The notes under the pieces are model-generated. The model was not told the origin of the DNA, made no database searches, and was given only the letters and a program-made list of their open reading frames with translations. From Candidatus Nanosyncoccus sp. (GTDB lineage Bacteria; Patescibacteriota; Saccharimonadia; Saccharimonadales; Saccharimonadaceae), in the NCBI GenBank assembly GCA_045604925.1, contig JAZUOZ010000016.1, forward strand, positions 15,220 through 79,219: a DNA stretch of 64,000 nucleotides. The letters run 5' to 3'. Made by a program: the position numbers and the translations under genes. This document shows positions 5,520-64,000 of the stretch, piece after piece (the stretch's first letter is position 1; every line of letters begins with the position of its first letter).

Positions 5520-5695
5520 ACTTATTACTTTATCACATTTACCCCTATATTTCAACGGTGTGTGCTTTTCGCAAGAAGTTTCAAATTTTAGTGATATGAT
5601 TAGTTTGAGTTTTGCCTGCTCACTTTATTTTGTAATGTAATTTTTTGCTGAAAAAAGCGAGCTCTTTAGAGAGCGCTACAGTATTAGTAGAGTTA

Positions 5696-6243
5696 GGCAT
5701 CGCCATAGACTTAGGCATTGCCGTAGACTTTAGCCTCACCAGAGACTCTGGCATTGCCAAAGACGTCAGCATTGCCATAGACTTCAGCCTCGCCATAGAC
5801 TTCAGCCTCGCCAAAGACTTTGGCATCGCCACAGACTTCAGCCTCGCCAAAGACTTTGGCATCGCCGTAGACTTTAGCCTCACCAGAGACTCTGGCATTG
5901 CCAAAGACGTCAGCATTGTCATAGACTTCAGCCTCGCCATAGATTCTGGCATTGCCGTAGACTTTAGCCTCACCAGAGACTCTGGCATTGCCAAAGACGT
6001 CAGCATTGCCATAGACTTCAGCCTCGCCAAAGACTTTGGCATCGCCAAAGACCCAGGCATCGCCATAGACTTTGGCATTGCCGTAGACTTCAGCATTGTC
6101 ATAGACTTCAGCCTCGCCAAAGACTCTGGCATTGTCATAGACTTTAGCATCGCCAAAGACGTCAGCATAGCCAAAGACTTCAGCATTGTCATAGACTTCA
6201 GCATCGCCGCAGACACAGGCAGCATCATAGACCTTAGCCGCGT
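5696..6243. repeat. 18-bp periodic coding tandem repeat
   Basis: An exact 55-bp block gccgtagactttagcctcacc...cagcattg occurs at 5720, 5864 and 5954. The spacings are 144 and 90 bp, both multiples of 18. Several frames on both strands stay open. Confidence 0.9.
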
Positions 6244-6418
6244 CACTAATCCAGCATAACCCATAGTGCGACAGGTTGTCTTCGGATTCAATGTAGCCTC
6301 CAAGGTCGCCCTTTTTGACATCTCCAAAGTCTCTGACGGCCCTTATGCGATGCAATCTATGGCCACTAAATTCGATGCTGTCACTTTCTGCTAATTCATA
6401 TTTCTTGTTCTTGCTCAT
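5711..6418 (-). CDS. Hexapeptide-repeat (left-handed beta-helix-like) protein
   Basis: A roughly 60-aa non-repeat N-terminus (KYELAESDSIEFSGHRLHRIRAVRDFGDVKKGDLGGYIESEDNLSH) is followed by about 30 units of [GD][DEN]A[EKR]V[YFS]. The ATG at 6418 is preceded by aaaggggtg. The track start at 6427 is a GTG. Confidence 0.7.
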   Translation of the reverse strand: MSKNKKYELAESDSIEFSGHRLHRIRAVRDFGDVKKGDLGGYIESEDNLSHYGLCWISDAAKVYDAACVCGDAEVYDNAEVFGYADVFGDAKVYDNARVFGEAEVYDNAEVYGNAKVYGDAWVFGDAKVFGEAEVYGNADVFGNARVSGEAKVYGNARIYGEAEVYDNADVFGNARVSGEAKVYGDAKVFGEAEVCGDAKVFGEAEVYGEAEVYGNADVFGNARVSGEAKVYGNA

Positions 6419-15761: not shown

Positions 15762-18686
15762 TTGATGAAATTTGCAAGTGCATATGAGCCAGGGGAATTT
15801 GAGTCGGATATTTATGCGGCGTGGGAAACGGCAGATGAGTTTTTGCCGGGGGGCAGCAAAAATGGCGCCGAAGAGGCCTATAATGCAGCGGTGAAAGGCG
15901 GTCGCCAGACTTATTCGATCGTGATGCCGCCGCCAAATGCTAATGGTAATCTCCACATTGGCCATGGGTTGACGATTGCAATCGAAGATTCTCTGACTCG
16001 TTATTATCGTTTAAGGGGCGATGCCACTTGGTATATTCCAGGGGCGGATCACGCTGGGTTTGAGACTTGGGTGGTCTATGAGCGTGCGCTGGAGAAAGAG
16101 GGTCATACGCGATTTGAGTATTCGCGCGACGAGCTTTATGCTAGGGTGTGGGATTTTGTCCAGGAACAGCGCGGTAATATGGAGCTGCAAGTGCGAGCGC
16201 TGGGGGCGTCTTGCTCGTGGAAAGATTTGACATTTACGCTAGATGAAAATGTGGTACGTCGGGTGTATTCGACTTTCGAGAAAATGTGGAATGACGGGAT
16301 GATTTACAGAGGCGAAAAGCTGGTAAATTATTGTACTAAGCATCAGACGGCGTTTGCGGATATTGAGGTGGAACATAAGGATGAGAAGGGACATCTCTGG
16401 GATATCGCCTATACGGTCGTCCAGGAGCAGCCATCTGCTTCTTCAGAAGATGCGCTCCTCCCTCGCGGTACCTCAAGTACCGCTCGGTCCGGTGCTCCTT
16501 CTTCATCGCATCTGACTACTCCTGAACAATCGTTGGAGATTATCGTAAGCACTACTCGGCCAGAGACCCTATTTGGTGATGCGGCGGTGGCGGTTAACCC
16601 CGAAGACGAGCGGTACAAAGATTTAATTGGCAAGTCTGTACATTTACCTCTAACAGATAGGACTATCCCAATTATTGCTGATGAGCATGCTGATCCAGAG
16701 TATGGGACTGGTGCCGTGAAGATTACCCCGGCACATGATTACGATGATTTTGAGGTGGGCGAGAGGCATACTTTGCCGAGGATTCAGGTGATTGGGTCGG
16801 ACGGTAAGATGTTACCAGAAGCGGGCTCTGACTATGCTGGTTTGACGACCGAAGAGTGCCGTAAGAAAGTATTACATGATCTAAAAGAACAGGGGTTGCT
16901 CAGAGGTGAAAAAGCAATTACTCACTCGGTGGCGCATTGTTATAAATGTGGCACGGTGATTGAACCGATGCTAAAAGAGCAGTGGTTTATCGATGTAAAA
17001 CGCCTGGCTAAGACTGCAATAGAGCATCTGGAAGCTGGAGAAATTAAGTTTTATCCTGCGTCTAAAAAGCAGGTTTTAATTAATTATTTACAGGGGTTGA
17101 AGGATTGGAATATTTCGCGCCAGATACCGTGGGGCATCGCAATTCCAATGTTTAGGAAGGCCACAGCGGAGCGCTCTGCTTCTTCAGAAGATGCGCTCCT
17201 CTCTCGCGGTACCTCAAGTACCGCTCGGTCCGGTGCTCCTTCTTCATCGCATAGCATCTCCGCTGAGGCTTCCTCAAGAGGTGATGAGTGGGTGTTTGAC
17301 ACCCGGACGCATCTTTCTGAGATTGAAATTGGCGGGGTGCGATACGAGCGTGATGAGGATACTTTTGACACCTGGTTTTCTAGCTCGCATTGGCCGGTAG
17401 TTTGTACTAACTGGGAGGAAGGTACGCCAAATCCTTATTATCCGTTGAACGTGATGGAAACAGGGGCGGATATCTTGTTTGCTTGGGTAGCACGGATGAT
17501 TATGATGGGGCTTTACGTCACTGGCGAGGTGCCGTTTAAAGAGGTATATCTGCATGGTTTGGTCCTCGATGCGCATGGGGCCAAGATGAGTAAATCTAAG
17601 GGCAATGTGCTAAATCCGATGGAGATGGTAGCAAAATATGGGTCGGATGCGTTCCGGCTAGGTATTTTGCGCGGGCGCTCGGCAGGGATGAATCAAGCGT
17701 TCTCTGAGCAGTCGATTGTCTCGGGGCGGAATCTTTGTAATAAGCTGTGGAATGTTTCCAGGTTCATACAGGATATGATTGATAAAGCGGAGCTAAGTAC
17801 AGATGCTCCGAAACGCTCTCTCGAGCCCGTCGTTACGGGTCTCGGTCGCCGAACCGCTCCCGTTGTCGCGGACGCCGGAGCATCTGACTTAGACTCTACC
17901 TTATCTAATGACAATTCTGGCGAGGACTGGATCTTGCGCGAGATCAACGAGGCGAAATGGCAGATTGAAAGCCAGATGAAAAACTACCGTTTCTCGGAGG
18001 CGGTGGAGACACTTTATTCCCTAATTTGGGATAAATACGCTGATTGGTTTATTGAAACCGAGAAGATGTTTAAGAATACTGAACTTTTGAAGGCAACTTT
18101 GGTGGCGATTTTGAAACTTTTCCATCCGTTTGCTCCATTTGTAACAGAGGCGATTTGGCAGAACTTATCGTGGACGGATGGGTTCTTGATTTCCCAGAAA
18201 TGGCCGTCTGACTTCAAATTTGACCCGATAAGCGCCGAGGAGTACGAAAAGCTTATGGTTGTAGTGTCTGGCATCCGAGGCACCTTACAGGGCCTCTCAG
18301 AGGCTCACAAGGGCATTTCTAAGTCGAGTATCAATGTGCTTTATGGCAATGATTCGCTGGTAGACGATAATTCCCTGCTAGTTCAGCATTTGACTAAAGT
18401 TGCTAGCGTTATTTCCAGCGAAGGTCAGCCTAGAGGTTTACGTCTGCCGCTAGCGAATCACGAGGTTTATTTGGATGTCTCCCCAGAGGTCGTGGCTTCT
18501 TATGCCAAGTCGTTGGAGGATAAGATTCTGGCGGTTGGACGAGAGCTTGATAGCCTAAACGCTCGGATGATGAACCCGAATTACGTGGACAAAGCACCAG
18601 CTGAGTTGGTAAAAGAAACCCAGGATGCAATTACCGAAAAATCTGCACTGATAGAGCGTTTGAAGCAAGAGCGGGAAGCGATTTAG
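15762..18686 (+). CDS. valS: Valine--tRNA ligase
   Basis: PPPNANGNLHIGH (HIGH), KMSKSKGN (KMSKS) and a C-terminal coiled coil. It carries three in-frame repeat insertions. Confidence 0.95.
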   Translation: MMKFASAYEPGEFESDIYAAWETADEFLPGGSKNGAEEAYNAAVKGGRQTYSIVMPPPNANGNLHIGHGLTIAIEDSLTRYYRLRGDATWYIPGADHAGFETWVVYERALEKEGHTRFEYSRDELYARVWDFVQEQRGNMELQVRALGASCSWKDLTFTLDENVVRRVYSTFEKMWNDGMIYRGEKLVNYCTKHQTAFADIEVEHKDEKGHLWDIAYTVVQEQPSASSEDALLPRGTSSTARSGAPSSSHLTTPEQSLEIIVSTTRPETLFGDAAVAVNPEDERYKDLIGKSVHLPLTDRTIPIIADEHADPEYGTGAVKITPAHDYDDFEVGERHTLPRIQVIGSDGKMLPEAGSDYAGLTTEECRKKVLHDLKEQGLLRGEKAITHSVAHCYKCGTVIEPMLKEQWFIDVKRLAKTAIEHLEAGEIKFYPASKKQVLINYLQGLKDWNISRQIPWGIAIPMFRKATAERSASSEDALLSRGTSSTARSGAPSSSHSISAEASSRGDEWVFDTRTHLSEIEIGGVRYERDEDTFDTWFSSSHWPVVCTNWEEGTPNPYYPLNVMETGADILFAWVARMIMMGLYVTGEVPFKEVYLHGLVLDAHGAKMSKSKGNVLNPMEMVAKYGSDAFRLGILRGRSAGMNQAFSEQSIVSGRNLCNKLWNVSRFIQDMIDKAELSTDAPKRSLEPVVTGLGRRTAPVVADAGASDLDSTLSNDNSGEDWILREINEAKWQIESQMKNYRFSEAVETLYSLIWDKYADWFIETEKMFKNTELLKATLVAILKLFHPFAPFVTEAIWQNLSWTDGFLISQKWPSDFKFDPISAEEYEKLMVVVSGIRGTLQGLSEAHKGISKSSINVLYGNDSLVDDNSLLVQHLTKVASVISSEGQPRGLRLPLANHEVYLDVSPEVVASYAKSLEDKILAVGRELDSLNARMMNPNYVDKAPAELVKETQDAITEKSALIERLKQEREAI
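16434..16511. repeat. Family-A 78-bp hairpin repeat, copy 1, in frame in valS
   Basis: 77 of 78 nt identical to 17175..17252. Central stem gcggtac / gtaccgc. Encodes SASSEDALLPRGTSSTARSGAPSSSH. Confidence 0.9.
17175..17252. repeat. Family-A 78-bp hairpin repeat, copy 2, in frame in valS
   Basis: See copy 1. It is inserted after IPMFRKATAER in the conserved catalytic region. Confidence 0.9.
17811..17883. repeat. Family-B palindromic repeat, copy 1, in frame in valS
   Basis: It shares gcccgtcgttacggg and ccgctcccgttgtcgcgga with the truB copy. It is bracketed by the 9-bp inverted repeat gatgctccg / cggagcatc. Confidence 0.8.
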
Positions 18687-28083: not shown

Positions 28084-28174
28084 GGAAGGGTGGCCGAGTG
28101 GTTGAAGGCGCACGCTTGGAAAGCGTGTAAGGGGGCTAACCTCTTCGCAGGTTCGAATCCTGTCCCTTCCGCCA
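28084..28174 (+). tRNA. tRNA-Ser (anticodon GGA)
   Basis: Acceptor GGAAGGG, anticodon stem CACGC/GCGTG with loop TTGGAAA, a long variable arm, T loop TTCGAAT and an encoded CCA. Confidence 0.9.
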
Positions 28175-28232
28175 AACTTTGACAGGCCAGAAGCGCGAAG
28201 CGGTTCTGGGCGGGTTTCAGGAAATAAAAAAT

Positions 28233-28336: not shown

Positions 28337-28354
28337 TCCTGTCCCTTCCGCCAA
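28337..28354 (+). repeat. 18-bp direct duplication of the tRNA-Ser(GGA) 3' end (att-like)
   Basis: tcctgtcccttccgccaa is identical to 28158..28175. Confidence 0.85.
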
Positions 28355-40491: not shown

Positions 40492-40851
40492 ATGGAATTT
40501 GAGATAGAAAAAGTTGGCGGAATTGGCGAATACACAGTAGAGAAGATATCTGTGGGTGAGGGAGTCGATGCCGAAGAAGTGACGGTTTATCGGGCCACAA
40601 AACAGAGCGAGGATGTTGCTAGCGAGGGGAATATAACAGAGGAGCTGAGGGCGTTTTTGGTGGTGCGGAAAAATACTTTGGAGGTGAGGACGGATAAGAA
40701 ACTGCGAGAACTTTTGCGCGAGAGGTATGAGAGTGTGATGGAGAGCCGGTATTTTGGCAAAGGGGGGATAGAGATAGTCAATTCTGGACAAATTTCTGGT
40801 GACGAAATTAATGATTTGATTAGGCTAAGCTATACCCTATCAAAGCAATAA
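40492..40851 (+). CDS. Hypothetical protein, possibly MmcQ/YjbR-like
   Basis: 119 aa. The C-terminal LIRLSYTL resembles the YjbR family ending. This is a weak call. Confidence 0.35.
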   Translation: MEFEIEKVGGIGEYTVEKISVGEGVDAEEVTVYRATKQSEDVASEGNITEELRAFLVVRKNTLEVRTDKKLRELLRERYESVMESRYFGKGGIEIVNSGQISGDEINDLIRLSYTLSKQ

Positions 40852-41000
40852 AGTAGTTTTTGGAGTTTGGGACTTGTTCATTGCTATTTTTACAACAAAA
40901 TATTCTTTGAATATGGACGACAATTGTTGTTGTAAAAATAGCACTCACAAATCTGGTCTAAATCTCATTACAAACTCAAAAACTACTTTATTGCTTTGAT
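40839..41000. repeat. 162-bp nested palindrome spanning the ends of two convergent genes
   Basis: The outer arms are atcaaagcaataaagtagtttttg(g)agtttg and its complement at 40971..41000. An inner 16-bp perfect stem is gctatttttacaacaa / ttgttgtaaaaatagc. Confidence 0.85.
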
Positions 41001-58807: not shown

Positions 58808-59629
58808 ATGAACTTAGTTAACAAAGATGTTCTGCTCGTGGATAAGCCGGCGGGGATGAGCTCTTTTGGAGTGGTCGCTAGAGTAAGGCGAGTGTTGACA
58901 GAGCAAAGGCGAGAGCAAATCCGAGAAGAGTGGGCTTTATCTGGGCGTGTGCTCTCAGATTTGCCGAAGGGTGCTCTGCCAAAACGAGTGAAAGTAGGAC
59001 ATGCTGGGACTTTGGATCCGTTTGCAACGGGTCTTTTAATTTGTTTACTGGGGAAGGCGACAAAGCGAGCGGGGGAGTTTTTGAAGCTAGATAAGAGGTA
59101 TACTGCGACAATTTGCCTGGGGAAAGTGTCTAGTACTGGAGACACGGAGGGAGAAATTGTAGAATATGATTCTTCACGGGCACCGGTCGCGTCGCCCGTC
59201 GTTACGGGGACGCTCCCTATCCTCCGCTCCCGTTGTCGCGGAAGATCCCGTGAAGAACATATTCCTACAATTTCCCAAATACGTTCAGTGCTAGAGCAGT
59301 TTATAGGGGAGATTGTGCAGAGGGTGCCGGCATATAGCGCTGTTAAAATCGACGGACGGAGAGCGTATGATTTGGCGCGGAAGGGGATCGAAGTGGAGAT
59401 GCCGGAGCGCAAGGTGCAGATTTATGAAATATCTATCTTGCGGTATGAGTGGCCGGAGCTGACGATAGATTGTAAAGTGAGCTCGGGGACGTATATCCGG
59501 GCGCTGGGCGAGGACATTGGCAAGGCACTAGGGGTGGGCGGTTACCTGACGGCGCTTCGAAGGACGGAGATTGGAGAGTATAAGGTGAGCGATGCAGTGA
59601 CACTGGGGGAACTGGGGATAGAAAACTAG
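58808..59629 (+). CDS. truB: tRNA pseudouridine(55) synthase
   Basis: LLVDKPAGMSS and KVGHAGTLDPFATGLL with the catalytic Asp. It carries one family-B repeat in frame. The ATG lies 6 nt after TGaTAAAAT. Confidence 0.9.
   Translation: MNLVNKDVLLVDKPAGMSSFGVVARVRRVLTEQRREQIREEWALSGRVLSDLPKGALPKRVKVGHAGTLDPFATGLLICLLGKATKRAGEFLKLDKRYTATICLGKVSSTGDTEGEIVEYDSSRAPVASPVVTGTLPILRSRCRGRSREEHIPTISQIRSVLEQFIGEIVQRVPAYSAVKIDGRRAYDLARKGIEVEMPERKVQIYEISILRYEWPELTIDCKVSSGTYIRALGEDIGKALGVGGYLTALRRTEIGEYKVSDAVTLGELGIEN
59174..59255. repeat. Family-B palindromic repeat, copy 2, in frame in truB
   Basis: It shares gcccgtcgttacggg and ccgctcccgttgtcgcgga with 17811..17883. It is bracketed by the 8-bp inverted repeat ttcacggg / cccgtgaa. 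Confidence 0.8.
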
Positions 59630-63482: not shown

Positions 63483-63634
63483 GCTAAAACATCACATAGA
63501 GTTTATTTTATATCTACCGTTGAGTCACTATTTGTAAAAGTGTATAAAAATGCGGCCATGTGCGGCTTAGTGTACACTTTTCACTGGTGGCTCTAGGTGA
63601 TGTTTTAGCGAACACGTACGTGGTCGCATTTTTG
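63483..63634 (+). ncRNA. Candidate structured RNA or attenuating leader upstream of a secreted-protein gene
   Basis: A 19-bp closing stem gctaaaacatcacatagag / ctctaggtgatgttttagc has one mismatch. It encloses an inner stem aaaagtgta / tacactttt. A palindromic hairpin gcgaacacgtacgtggtcgc plus a T run follows. A possible promoter is TTGCGC-N18-TATAAT at 63450..63479. Confidence 0.4.
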
Positions 63635-63728
63635 TTGGTATTTACAATAGGCAGGGGGTATCGCGAGATATGTAATAGACAAAAGTGTCTCTACGTGCGG
63701 GCATAGCAACCACACCAAAGGAGGTACA

Positions 63729-64000
63729 ATGTCAAGCACCAACAAGCTATACTCTCTAGGCCAGAGCCAGCGCTCTAGTCGTCACGTAGTGAGTTTTATA
63801 GCAAAATTTCTTTTATCTTTTTGTGGCATTGCCTCCTTTGGTGTGGTTACTATGGCAATACCAACTTCTGCCACTTCCGCCACAGGATCTGCTTCTAATA
63901 ATGTTAGTGTAGGTATATCTAGTTCTGTCGCCATCCGTCTGCTAGACTCTACCGCAACCTTCGACATCACTAGACTAGACTTTGACCTTACTCCTACCGC
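63729..64000 (+). CDS. Secreted or membrane-anchored hypothetical protein, 3'-partial
   Basis: ATG at 63729 preceded by aaaggagg. The frame stays open to the window end. It has an N-terminal basic segment and a hydrophobic helix (FIAKFLLSFCGIASFGVVTMAI). It is absent from the ORF track because no stop lies in the window. Confidence 0.6.
   Translation, partial: MSSTNKLYSLGQSQRSSRHVVSFIAKFLLSFCGIASFGVVTMAIPTSATSATGSASNNVSVGISSSVAIRLLDSTATFDITRLDFDLTPT

Follow-up and report, generated by a model that had tools for sequence, protein, structure and literature searches.

Sequence blocks shared by valS and truB mark a family of hairpin-forming, in-frame DNA repeats in animal-gut Candidatus Saccharibacteria

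A 64,000-nucleotide (nt) stretch of contig JAZUOZ010000016.1 from Candidatus Nanosyncoccus sp. (henceforth referred to as the window) carries two short sequence blocks that are shared by its valS and truB genes, which an earlier reading of the letters (the original prediction) took for a structured repeat inserted in both. Here we report that these blocks mark a real and previously undescribed family of ~120-base hairpin-forming DNA repeats. The family is restricted to one lineage and dispersed over many genes, it is structured, its copies are gained and lost in frame at orthologous sites and their orientation is linked to replication. With moderate confidence, we regard it as lineage-specific, non-autonomous, hairpin-forming selfish DNA of animal-gut Candidatus Saccharibacteria, which resembles the Rickettsia palindromic elements (RPEs) and would be moved as single-stranded DNA at replication forks. 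Judged from its TruB homologs, the organism of the window is itself a Candidatus Saccharibacteria, and we found no account of such elements in Saccharibacteria, Patescibacteria or TM7 in the literature searched.

The two blocks are an exact 15-mer (GCCCGTCGTTACGGG) and an exact 19-mer (CCGCTCCCGTTGTCGCGGA), present in both genes at the places first described; the spacer between them, originally given as about 15 nt, measures 14 nt in the valS copy and 15 nt in the truB copy (Table 1). The 19-mer found no match in any of 100 dinucleotide-preserving shuffles, and the 15-mer is weaker alone, 13 of the 100 shuffles reaching at least two matches at up to three mismatches. No third copy of either block was detected in the 64-kb window with up to three mismatches permitted, and a profile built from 124 copies of the family recovered only the valS and truB copies there. 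The blocks had been described as shared in frame. This is correct for block 1, which is translated as PVVTG in ValRS and TruB alike, but not for block 2, which reads TAPVVAD in ValRS and RSRCRGR in TruB since the difference in spacer length places it in different frames, and the conservation is thus at the level of DNA and not of protein. As anticipated, both host genes remain uninterrupted across the insert. The host proteins orthologous to valS match class I tRNA synthetase Pfam families, and the homologs of truB, which contain PF01509/PF16198, are annotated as tRNA pseudouridine(55) synthase TruB. The insert amounts to +81 nt (27 codons) in truB when compared with the empty orthologs L002 and L006 (the prefix L denotes collected loci throughout) and to +78 to +96 nt in valS when compared with empty orthologous sites; ~25 added residues had been proposed. 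The perfect inverted repeats of 8–9 nt said to bracket each copy do exist as brackets, but they are imperfect, ~28–30 nt long and include host codons: the valS arms (17781-17810 / 17876-17905) are 30 nt long and 70% complementary, the truB arms (59153-59180 / 59247-59274) are 28 nt long and 79% complementary, and the arms of both units extend into native-looking codons (e.g. GEIVEY in TruB). Folding of the two units is much stronger than that of their shuffles. The valS unit has an 11-bp closing stem and folds at -42.4 kcal/mol (z = -3.3 for the + strand RNA), and the truB unit folds at -46.6 kcal/mol (z = -4.9 for the + strand RNA and -7.9 for the - strand). In Rfam, no family matched either element at E values up to 1, and the window itself contained just three tRNAs at gathering score.

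Table 1. Positions in the window of the two copies, their parts and their host genes
Feature	Position	Strand	Basis or remark
Block 1 / hairpin 1 in valS	17825-17839	+	exact match of GCCCGTCGTTACGGG; CCCGT-CGTT-ACGGG
Block 2 / hairpin 2 in valS	17854-17872	+	exact match of CCGCTCCCGTTGTCGCGGA; CGC-TCCCGTTGTC-GCG
Block 1 / hairpin 1 in truB	59194-59208	+	exact match of GCCCGTCGTTACGGG
Block 2 / hairpin 2 in truB	59224-59242	+	exact match of CCGCTCCCGTTGTCGCGGA
Full palindromic unit in valS (own arms and conserved core)	17781-17905	+	inverted repeat, fold
Full palindromic unit in truB	59153-59274	+	inverted repeat, fold
Conserved core, valS copy	17805-17882	+	profile hidden Markov model envelope, nhmmer E = 1.4e-14
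Conserved core, truB copy	59174-59253	+	profile hidden Markov model envelope, nhmmer E = 1.7e-12
Host gene valS	15762-18686	+	974 codons, translation stays open across insert
Host gene truB	58808-59629	+	273 codons, translation stays open across insert

To establish the extent of the family, one genome per species (185,579 species) was scanned with the pattern CCGTCGTTACGG-N(10-25)-TCCCGTTGTCG. At least 117 stretches from ~60 assemblies matched, with up to ~11 stretches per assembly, and among the matches listed nearly all were titled Candidatus Saccharibacteria or Nanosyncoccus and came mostly from ruminant gut and rumen. A profile made from 124 copies and searched against the collected loci added 18 copies that carry a few substitutions and fall off the exact pattern, and a metagenome scan added 39, so that genomes and metagenomes together hold more than 160 further copies beyond the window. 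The two unrelated essential genes of the window therefore do share a short structured repeat family, and the outcome that had been named as fatal to this idea, no further copies and blocks explained by a protein motif, is contradicted on both counts, as both orientations and at least five of the six frames are used to translate the blocks. None of 2.9 million viral contigs matched this pattern, and a phage origin was rejected on this ground. The loci L042, L112, L025, L046, L058 and L085 were titled Faecalibacterium sp., Clostridiales bacterium or simply ‘bacterium’, and three contigs so labelled were noted in the genome scan; in these contigs the element sits in genes that are 80–90% identical to Saccharibacteria orthologs, which suggests that they are mis-binned Saccharibacteria in public metagenome-assembled genomes.

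The copies lie within genes and respect the reading frame. Stop-free spans of at least 150 amino acids (aa) contain 122 of 128 copies (95%), and relative to the host gene 100 of the 128 are antisense and 28 sense. The host frame is open through every one of the 118 copies in long genes, and across the ~125-nt unit no other sense frame is free of stops in 87 of these. The copies draw on five of the six possible frames; V/IRDNGSEIASEPRNDGR is the commonest translated product, and an example of a predicted insert peptide is ...RDNGSEIASEPRNDGR.... The copies occupy 56 sites in at least 36 host protein clusters, all of them housekeeping, which include class I aminoacyl-tRNA synthetases of the Val/Ile/Leu type, ArgRS, TyrRS, Obg, LepA, PolA, TopA, GyrA, a GatA-like amidase, Tgt, TrmD, MnmA, Dus, TsaD, FtsJ, TruB, TatD, RecX and an RNase T-like exonuclease. 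In an AlphaFold2 model of the TruB of the window (mean predicted local distance difference test score, pLDDT, 85) the only low-confidence segment is residues 126–147, which has pLDDT <50, is coil and contains no secondary structure, and the core in truB corresponds roughly to residues 123–149. The TruB insert is therefore predicted to be a disordered loop that is tolerated by the fold. TruB proteins range from 220 to 326 aa in length and vary almost wholly at one point, directly after the GDxEGEI motif. This loop (columns ~130–245 of the ortholog alignment) carries many unrelated inserts across Saccharibacteria, and some of these are the same DNA element in another frame, e.g. HRAASPSLRVSALSF in P0008 and P0012; the site is a general insertion hot spot.

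Each unit consists of a conserved core and two outer arms. The core is ~81 nt (27 codons) long, divided roughly into 24 + 42 + 14 nt, and holds two small hairpins, each of which contains the motif CCCGTYGT; one hairpin sequence of the element is CCCGTCGTTACGGG. Hairpin 1 is CCCGT-CGTT-ACGGG with an outward extension of the stem whose pairs covary (GC in 88 copies, CG in 26, UA in 5 and AU in 3), and three of the 18 non-exact copies show the double compensatory change CCTGT/ACAGG in this hairpin. Hairpin 2 is CGC-TCCCGTTGTC-GCG, with a closing pair that likewise covaries (CG 66, UA 29, GC 4). The inner closing stem is semi-conserved (TTCTCG... / ...CTCGAA) and has a recurrent mismatch. In contrast, the outer arms (~20–30 nt) have a different sequence at each site and carry an information content of only 0.1–0.5 bit per position, but retain their complementarity. 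On folding, a median of 34 pairs enclose the core, compared with 7 when the right flank is swapped for that of another copy, and arm positions 6–23 nt from the pattern are paired in 55–85% of copies compared with 22–43% in the control. This copy-by-copy measurement against swapped-flank controls was adopted because the arms shift register by 1–2 nt between subfamilies; RNAalifold on the 150-column alignment recovered just the two core hairpins, and a brute-force scan of column pairs returned nothing further. Between genomes, the arms of orthologous copies differ in sequence and are still complementary, and they diverge faster, and the core slower, than the adjoining coding DNA. The identity between orthologous copies is 0.79–0.89 in the core and 0.59–0.78 in the flanking coding DNA, a core figure that is inflated by a search pattern which itself required the blocks; the TruB orthologs and the 18 non-exact copies provide evidence of constraint that is free of this bias. 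In several cases one arm is made up of codons that are recognisably native, and the other arm repeats it in inverted form.

We next consider the presence and absence of the element at orthologous sites, determined by matching the peptides that flank each copy to other loci. The same codon position is filled in some genomes and empty in others, and alignments at the DNA level show filled and empty sites for Obg, TyrRS, class I synthetases, TrmD, ArgRS and ValRS. Both TruB and ValRS thus occur with and without the insert. Length differences relative to empty sites are multiples of three. They amount to 93–120 nt (e.g. +93, +111 and +120) where the empty site is not palindromic and to 81 nt, the length of the core, where the empty site already has palindromic arms (L006; L109, L046). 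Palindromic sites of this kind, seen at L006:428-535 and at the Obg site in L109, L072 and L046, have no core but retain arms of 12–17 bp around a short loop, and more distant empty sites have no palindrome. A direct target-site duplication, which the original prediction had proposed to look for at the brackets, was not seen at any junction between empty and occupied sites, and the repeats that flank the insert are inverted. The valS site of the window is empty in L083 and L104, holds a different insert in L022 and holds the element in opposite orientation in L036, L122, L105, L095 and L058. Composite inserts of 222 and 330 nt occupy this site in L022 and L058, respectively, and the valS ortholog at L054:3176-3409 contains a diverged element copy, after which a tandem duplication encodes SADVGATGLDSVS twice.

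At the truB site, the DNA of six orthologs was compared. In L002 and L006 the conserved anchors lie 108 nt apart with no insert; relative to these, L001 and the window are both longer by 81 nt, L003 by 78 nt and L004 by 81 nt, the last two with the same hairpin 1 and a different hairpin 2. The 15-mer of block 1 is retained in L001, L003 and L004, orthologs that were chosen by protein similarity and not by the DNA pattern, and the stems change by compensation: GCGTC/GACGC alternates with GCTCG/CGAGC, and the hairpin 2 stem CCGC/GCGG becomes TCGC/GCGA in L001 and L005. The insert in L005 (3322-3555) is +126 nt and has a complete window-type unit with its arms (EIVEH/VATISQ) nested within the genome's own palindromic arms of the L006 type (EISEY ... 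IPDLLQ), which suggests that a whole arm-core-arm unit moved into an existing palindrome, possibly between strains.

The orientation of the element follows replication. The GC skew of the window is strongly positive over the 64 kb (0.04–0.37 per 2 kb), with a single slightly negative bin at 6–8 kb and no change of sign elsewhere, which places the window within one replichore with + as the G-rich strand. About two thirds of the long open reading frames (ORFs) of the window are on the G-rich strand, and the positive skew persists across minus-strand genes; the skew thus reflects replication rather than transcription. In 91 of 101 copies the search pattern lies on the G-rich strand (22 co-oriented with the gene and 69 opposed to it), with 10 exceptions. 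Counted by site, the G-rich strand is used at 43 and the other strand at 5 of the 48 informative groups among the 56 insertion-site groups. The metagenome copies show the same bias (12 versus 1), and the other long ORFs of the same loci show no comparable strand bias. The bias is also evident within single sites. At the valS site, the copy of the window is sense and the sense strand is G-rich, whereas in the five other genomes the copy is antisense and the sense strand is C-rich; at the truB site, orientation flips with the skew of the gene, four genomes being one way and two the other. A second and weaker preference is for antisense insertion, which gives a very hydrophilic peptide, and the two preferences together lead to an over-representation of C-rich-strand genes among the hosts. 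Lagging-strand synthesis uses the G-rich strand as its template, and this strand is exposed as single-stranded DNA. Elements of the insertion sequence (IS) group IS200/IS605 and the repetitive extragenic palindromes (REPs) are hairpin-bearing DNAs that are processed by HUH/Y1 enzymes on the lagging-strand template (PMC6006769, PMC5027513).

Among known systems, the element is functionally closest to the RPEs, which are in-frame palindromic inserts in unrelated housekeeping genes whose peptide is judged to be compatible with the fold of the host protein (PMC10969869). Both are short, palindromic, multi-copy and dispersed within one lineage, both keep the frame in housekeeping genes of a host-dependent bacterium with a reduced genome, at a tolerant site (shown here for TruB only), and a transposase is known for neither. 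The RPEs, however, belong to Alphaproteobacteria and not to Patescibacteria (CPR, candidate phyla radiation), are conserved over ~150 bp rather than ~81 nt and encode one conserved peptide, whereas the Saccharibacteria element is read in several frames and both orientations, has arms that differ at each site and has a strong replication-strand bias. RPEs are not known to have copy-specific arms or a strand bias. No Rickettsia record was present among the at least 117 stretches listed, and by host and by this listing the element is not a sequence member of the RPEs.

REPs are short hairpin repeats that an HUH/Y1 enzyme is believed to act on in single-stranded form, and a canonical REP shows 5′ GT[AG]G at its hairpin foot together with a REP-associated tyrosine transposase (RAYT) gene (PMC6006769). 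The Saccharibacteria element is similar to REPs and REPINs in being short, hairpin-forming and multi-copy with subfamilies, but REPs are extragenic, whereas 95% of the copies here lie inside long open frames. A direct reading of the core consensus showed neither GTAG nor GTGG at the foot of either hairpin, and no RAYT or Y1 transposase was matched in ~0.95 Mb of related DNA, a weak negative. The intragenic location and the absence of a GT[AG]G foot do not fit the definition of a REP. The ends of IS200/IS605 elements and their derivatives without ORFs offer a further parallel, in that orientation is tied to the lagging-strand template and the ends are hairpins instead of terminal inverted repeats (PMC6006769, PMC5027513); they share with the present element the two hairpins, the lack of a direct target duplication and the lagging-strand-linked orientation. 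They differ from it in that no tnpA/tnpB partner was found here within the ~0.95 Mb searched, in that no conserved target tetranucleotide was identified and in that IS200/IS605 makes no inverted copies of the flank. [quoted passage not shown] Those of the Correia, ERIC, RUP and BOX type are likewise small, non-autonomous and structured, but they are mostly intergenic, with direct target duplications and with terminal inverted repeats that are conserved; the Saccharibacteria element has none of these features, and its lack of conserved terminal repeats and of direct target duplications does not fit the definition of a classical MITE. Fungal mitochondrial GC clusters, double-hairpin elements and ‘byp’ inserts are GC-rich hairpins that invade coding genes, in variable loops, of an AT-richer genome; they are organellar, some are bypassed and frame-free, whereas the frame is kept here, and there is no sequence relation.

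Our preferred reading of the family as selfish DNA moved at replication forks would proceed as follows. Because the motif nearly always lies on whichever strand replication leaves single-stranded, the element may be mobilised as single-stranded DNA at the fork, where a sequence-specific protein would recognise the two CCCGTYGT hairpins in the HUH/Y1 style, as on IS200/IS605 ends or REPs. Copies would land in many genes, and the survivors would be those that keep the frame and fall in tolerant surface loops of housekeeping proteins, where they would be translated as a disordered peptide. At or after insertion, one host flank would be copied in inverted form by snap-back or template switching, to give the arms, and templated correction within the palindrome would then keep the arms complementary. 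We also put forward, tentatively and as a rather doubtful proposition, that the element is a novel type of bacterial mobile DNA in which insertion of the core into essential genes, or its upkeep there, is itself what writes the inverted copy of the neighbouring codons and so turns each copy into a long palindrome specific to its site, with a polarity set and reset by replication and with no dedicated transposase, or else an enzyme class so far not linked to transposition; if true, the element would be a major by-product source of new surface loops in the proteins of ultra-small CPR bacteria.

Several points weigh against the preferred reading. All of the genomes are metagenome-assembled, the direction of replication was read by proxy from the GC skew of 8-kb tiles, and the invariant block columns of the 124-copy alignment are partly built in by the search pattern. 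A tblastn search with an IS200 TnpA query over the ~0.95 Mb of related DNA found no match for a partner enzyme, again a weak negative. As IS200/IS605-type insertion makes no inverted copy of the flank, the arms need a second process. A search for the native arm by best match to empty orthologs gave 11 versus 6 with 27 ties, which is background level, and native arms read by eye were 5′ in three cases and 3′ in one and so were mutually discordant. The palindromic ‘empty’ sites could be footprints of core excision or palindromes that existed before insertion, and either fits.

We considered whether replication errors without any enzyme could account for the family, the nascent strand switching to an existing copy elsewhere, copying its core, snapping back on the closing stem of the core, copying its own upstream flank in inverted form and returning to the original template. 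We judge this to be unlikely. It gives a direct account of copy-specific inverted arms, explains why the core plus about one arm is added (+93, +111 and +120 nt for a core of ~81 nt), predicts a replication-strand bias and sits well both with the lack of a transposase match in tblastn (the weak negative above) and with a second, unrelated family in valS (16429-16511 and 17170-17252), which likewise has copy-specific arms. However, it leaves unexplained why hairpin 1 is near-invariant in TruB orthologs while the arms and hairpin 2 vary, and why CCCGTYGT recurs in both hairpins, and the stable hairpin 1 and this shared motif point to recognition by a protein; moreover, the fixed polarity of the native arm that it leads one to expect is not borne out, and template switching at ectopic, unrelated positions would need to happen often and at many of them. 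An element that is useful to its host, whether as a polar chromosomal signal of the Chi or FtsK-orienting type, a DNA-uptake signal in these naturally competent bacteria or a messenger RNA (mRNA) hairpin that tunes expression of housekeeping genes, appears to us improbable. The strong replication-orientation bias is typical of such signals, the stems are upheld by compensatory change and the core is more conserved (0.79–0.89) than the flanking coding DNA (0.59–0.78), although this conservation is inflated by the search pattern; but two copies per 64 kb fall far short of the numbers of known polar and uptake signals, relatives freely lack the element at orthologous sites and the sites occupied are variable protein loops and not regulatory positions.

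We give very little credence to an ordinary MITE mobilised by a DDE transposase that a parent insertion sequence supplies, even though the element, small and non-coding, is a dispersed palindrome that varies in its presence: arms with ~0.1–0.4 bit per position offer a transposase no terminal inverted repeats shared across the family, the repeat in the flanks runs in inverted orientation and is not a direct target-site duplication, and a site strand bias of 43 versus 5 is atypical of cut-and-paste elements. It is similarly hard to credit that the insert is absent from the protein through intron-like removal from the mRNA or ribosomal bypass, for which bypassed hairpin inserts in T4 gene 60 and in Magnusiomyces mitochondria provide precedents. 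The long stem that joins the host flanks and the strong structure of the element as RNA are compatible with this, but neither process would need an insert that is stop-free and a multiple of three in length, whereas the host frame is open in all 118 copies (in 87 as the only such sense frame), filled sites differ in length from empty ones by multiples of three and no Rfam family matches the element. Chance similarity, or a protein motif common to ValRS and TruB, has a negligible claim. Taken alone, the 15-mer is not very improbable by chance (at least two matches at up to three mismatches in 13 of 100 shuffles), but the 19-mer is matched in none of 100 shuffles, the frames of block 2 differ, the segment is missing from many orthologs and more than 160 further copies lie in other genes; the shuffles, the frame difference and the orthologs that lack the segment rule this explanation out.

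The presence of an unrelated family, with at least one more in the same gene, in the reduced genomes of episymbiotic Saccharibacteria suggests that in-frame intragenic selfish repeats, so far treated as a Rickettsia oddity, are more general, and gene-dense, host-dependent bacteria may leave mobile DNA no place but those loops of essential proteins that tolerate it. Much of the variation in length among Saccharibacteria housekeeping proteins, such as TruB, is due to these inserts, which can also mislead gene calling, alignment and phylogenomics of CPR genomes. Arms that are unique to each site and complementary, together with an orientation that tracks replication, make the element a tractable system for the study of the mobilisation of hairpin DNA and the growth and upkeep of palindromes.

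The second repeat in valS is 83 nt long, and its two copies are 96% identical and unrelated to the first family. It contains a GCGGTAC-CTCAA-GTACCGC hairpin, its copies have their own arms (CAGGAG.../...CTCCTG and CAGCGGAG/CTCCGCTG) and related copies are present in L013, L072, L001 (in PolA) and L054. It is thus another in-frame palindromic family of the same architecture, and valS has three inserts in total. Other repeats were observed in the window. A tandem array with a period of 18 nt (5615-6334; at least 26 registers, 61–83% identity) overlaps ORFs on the - strand (5620-6327) and the + strand (5645-6259) and probably represents a 6-residue repeat in a protein. At 28158-28175 and 28337-28354 there is an exact 18-nt direct repeat (TCCTGTCCCTTCCGCCAA), the first copy overlapping the 3′ end of a tRNA (28084-28171); it could be a trace of integration at the tRNA. 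Between two convergent ORFs, an AT-rich and perfect 24-bp inverted repeat (40839-40862 / 40977-41000) encloses a perfect 17-bp one (40882-40898 / 40927-40943), and a cluster of inverted repeats lies downstream of the last long ORF at 63483-63854 (63483-63501/63591-63609, 63532-63564/63615-63647 and 63702-63724/63832-63854).

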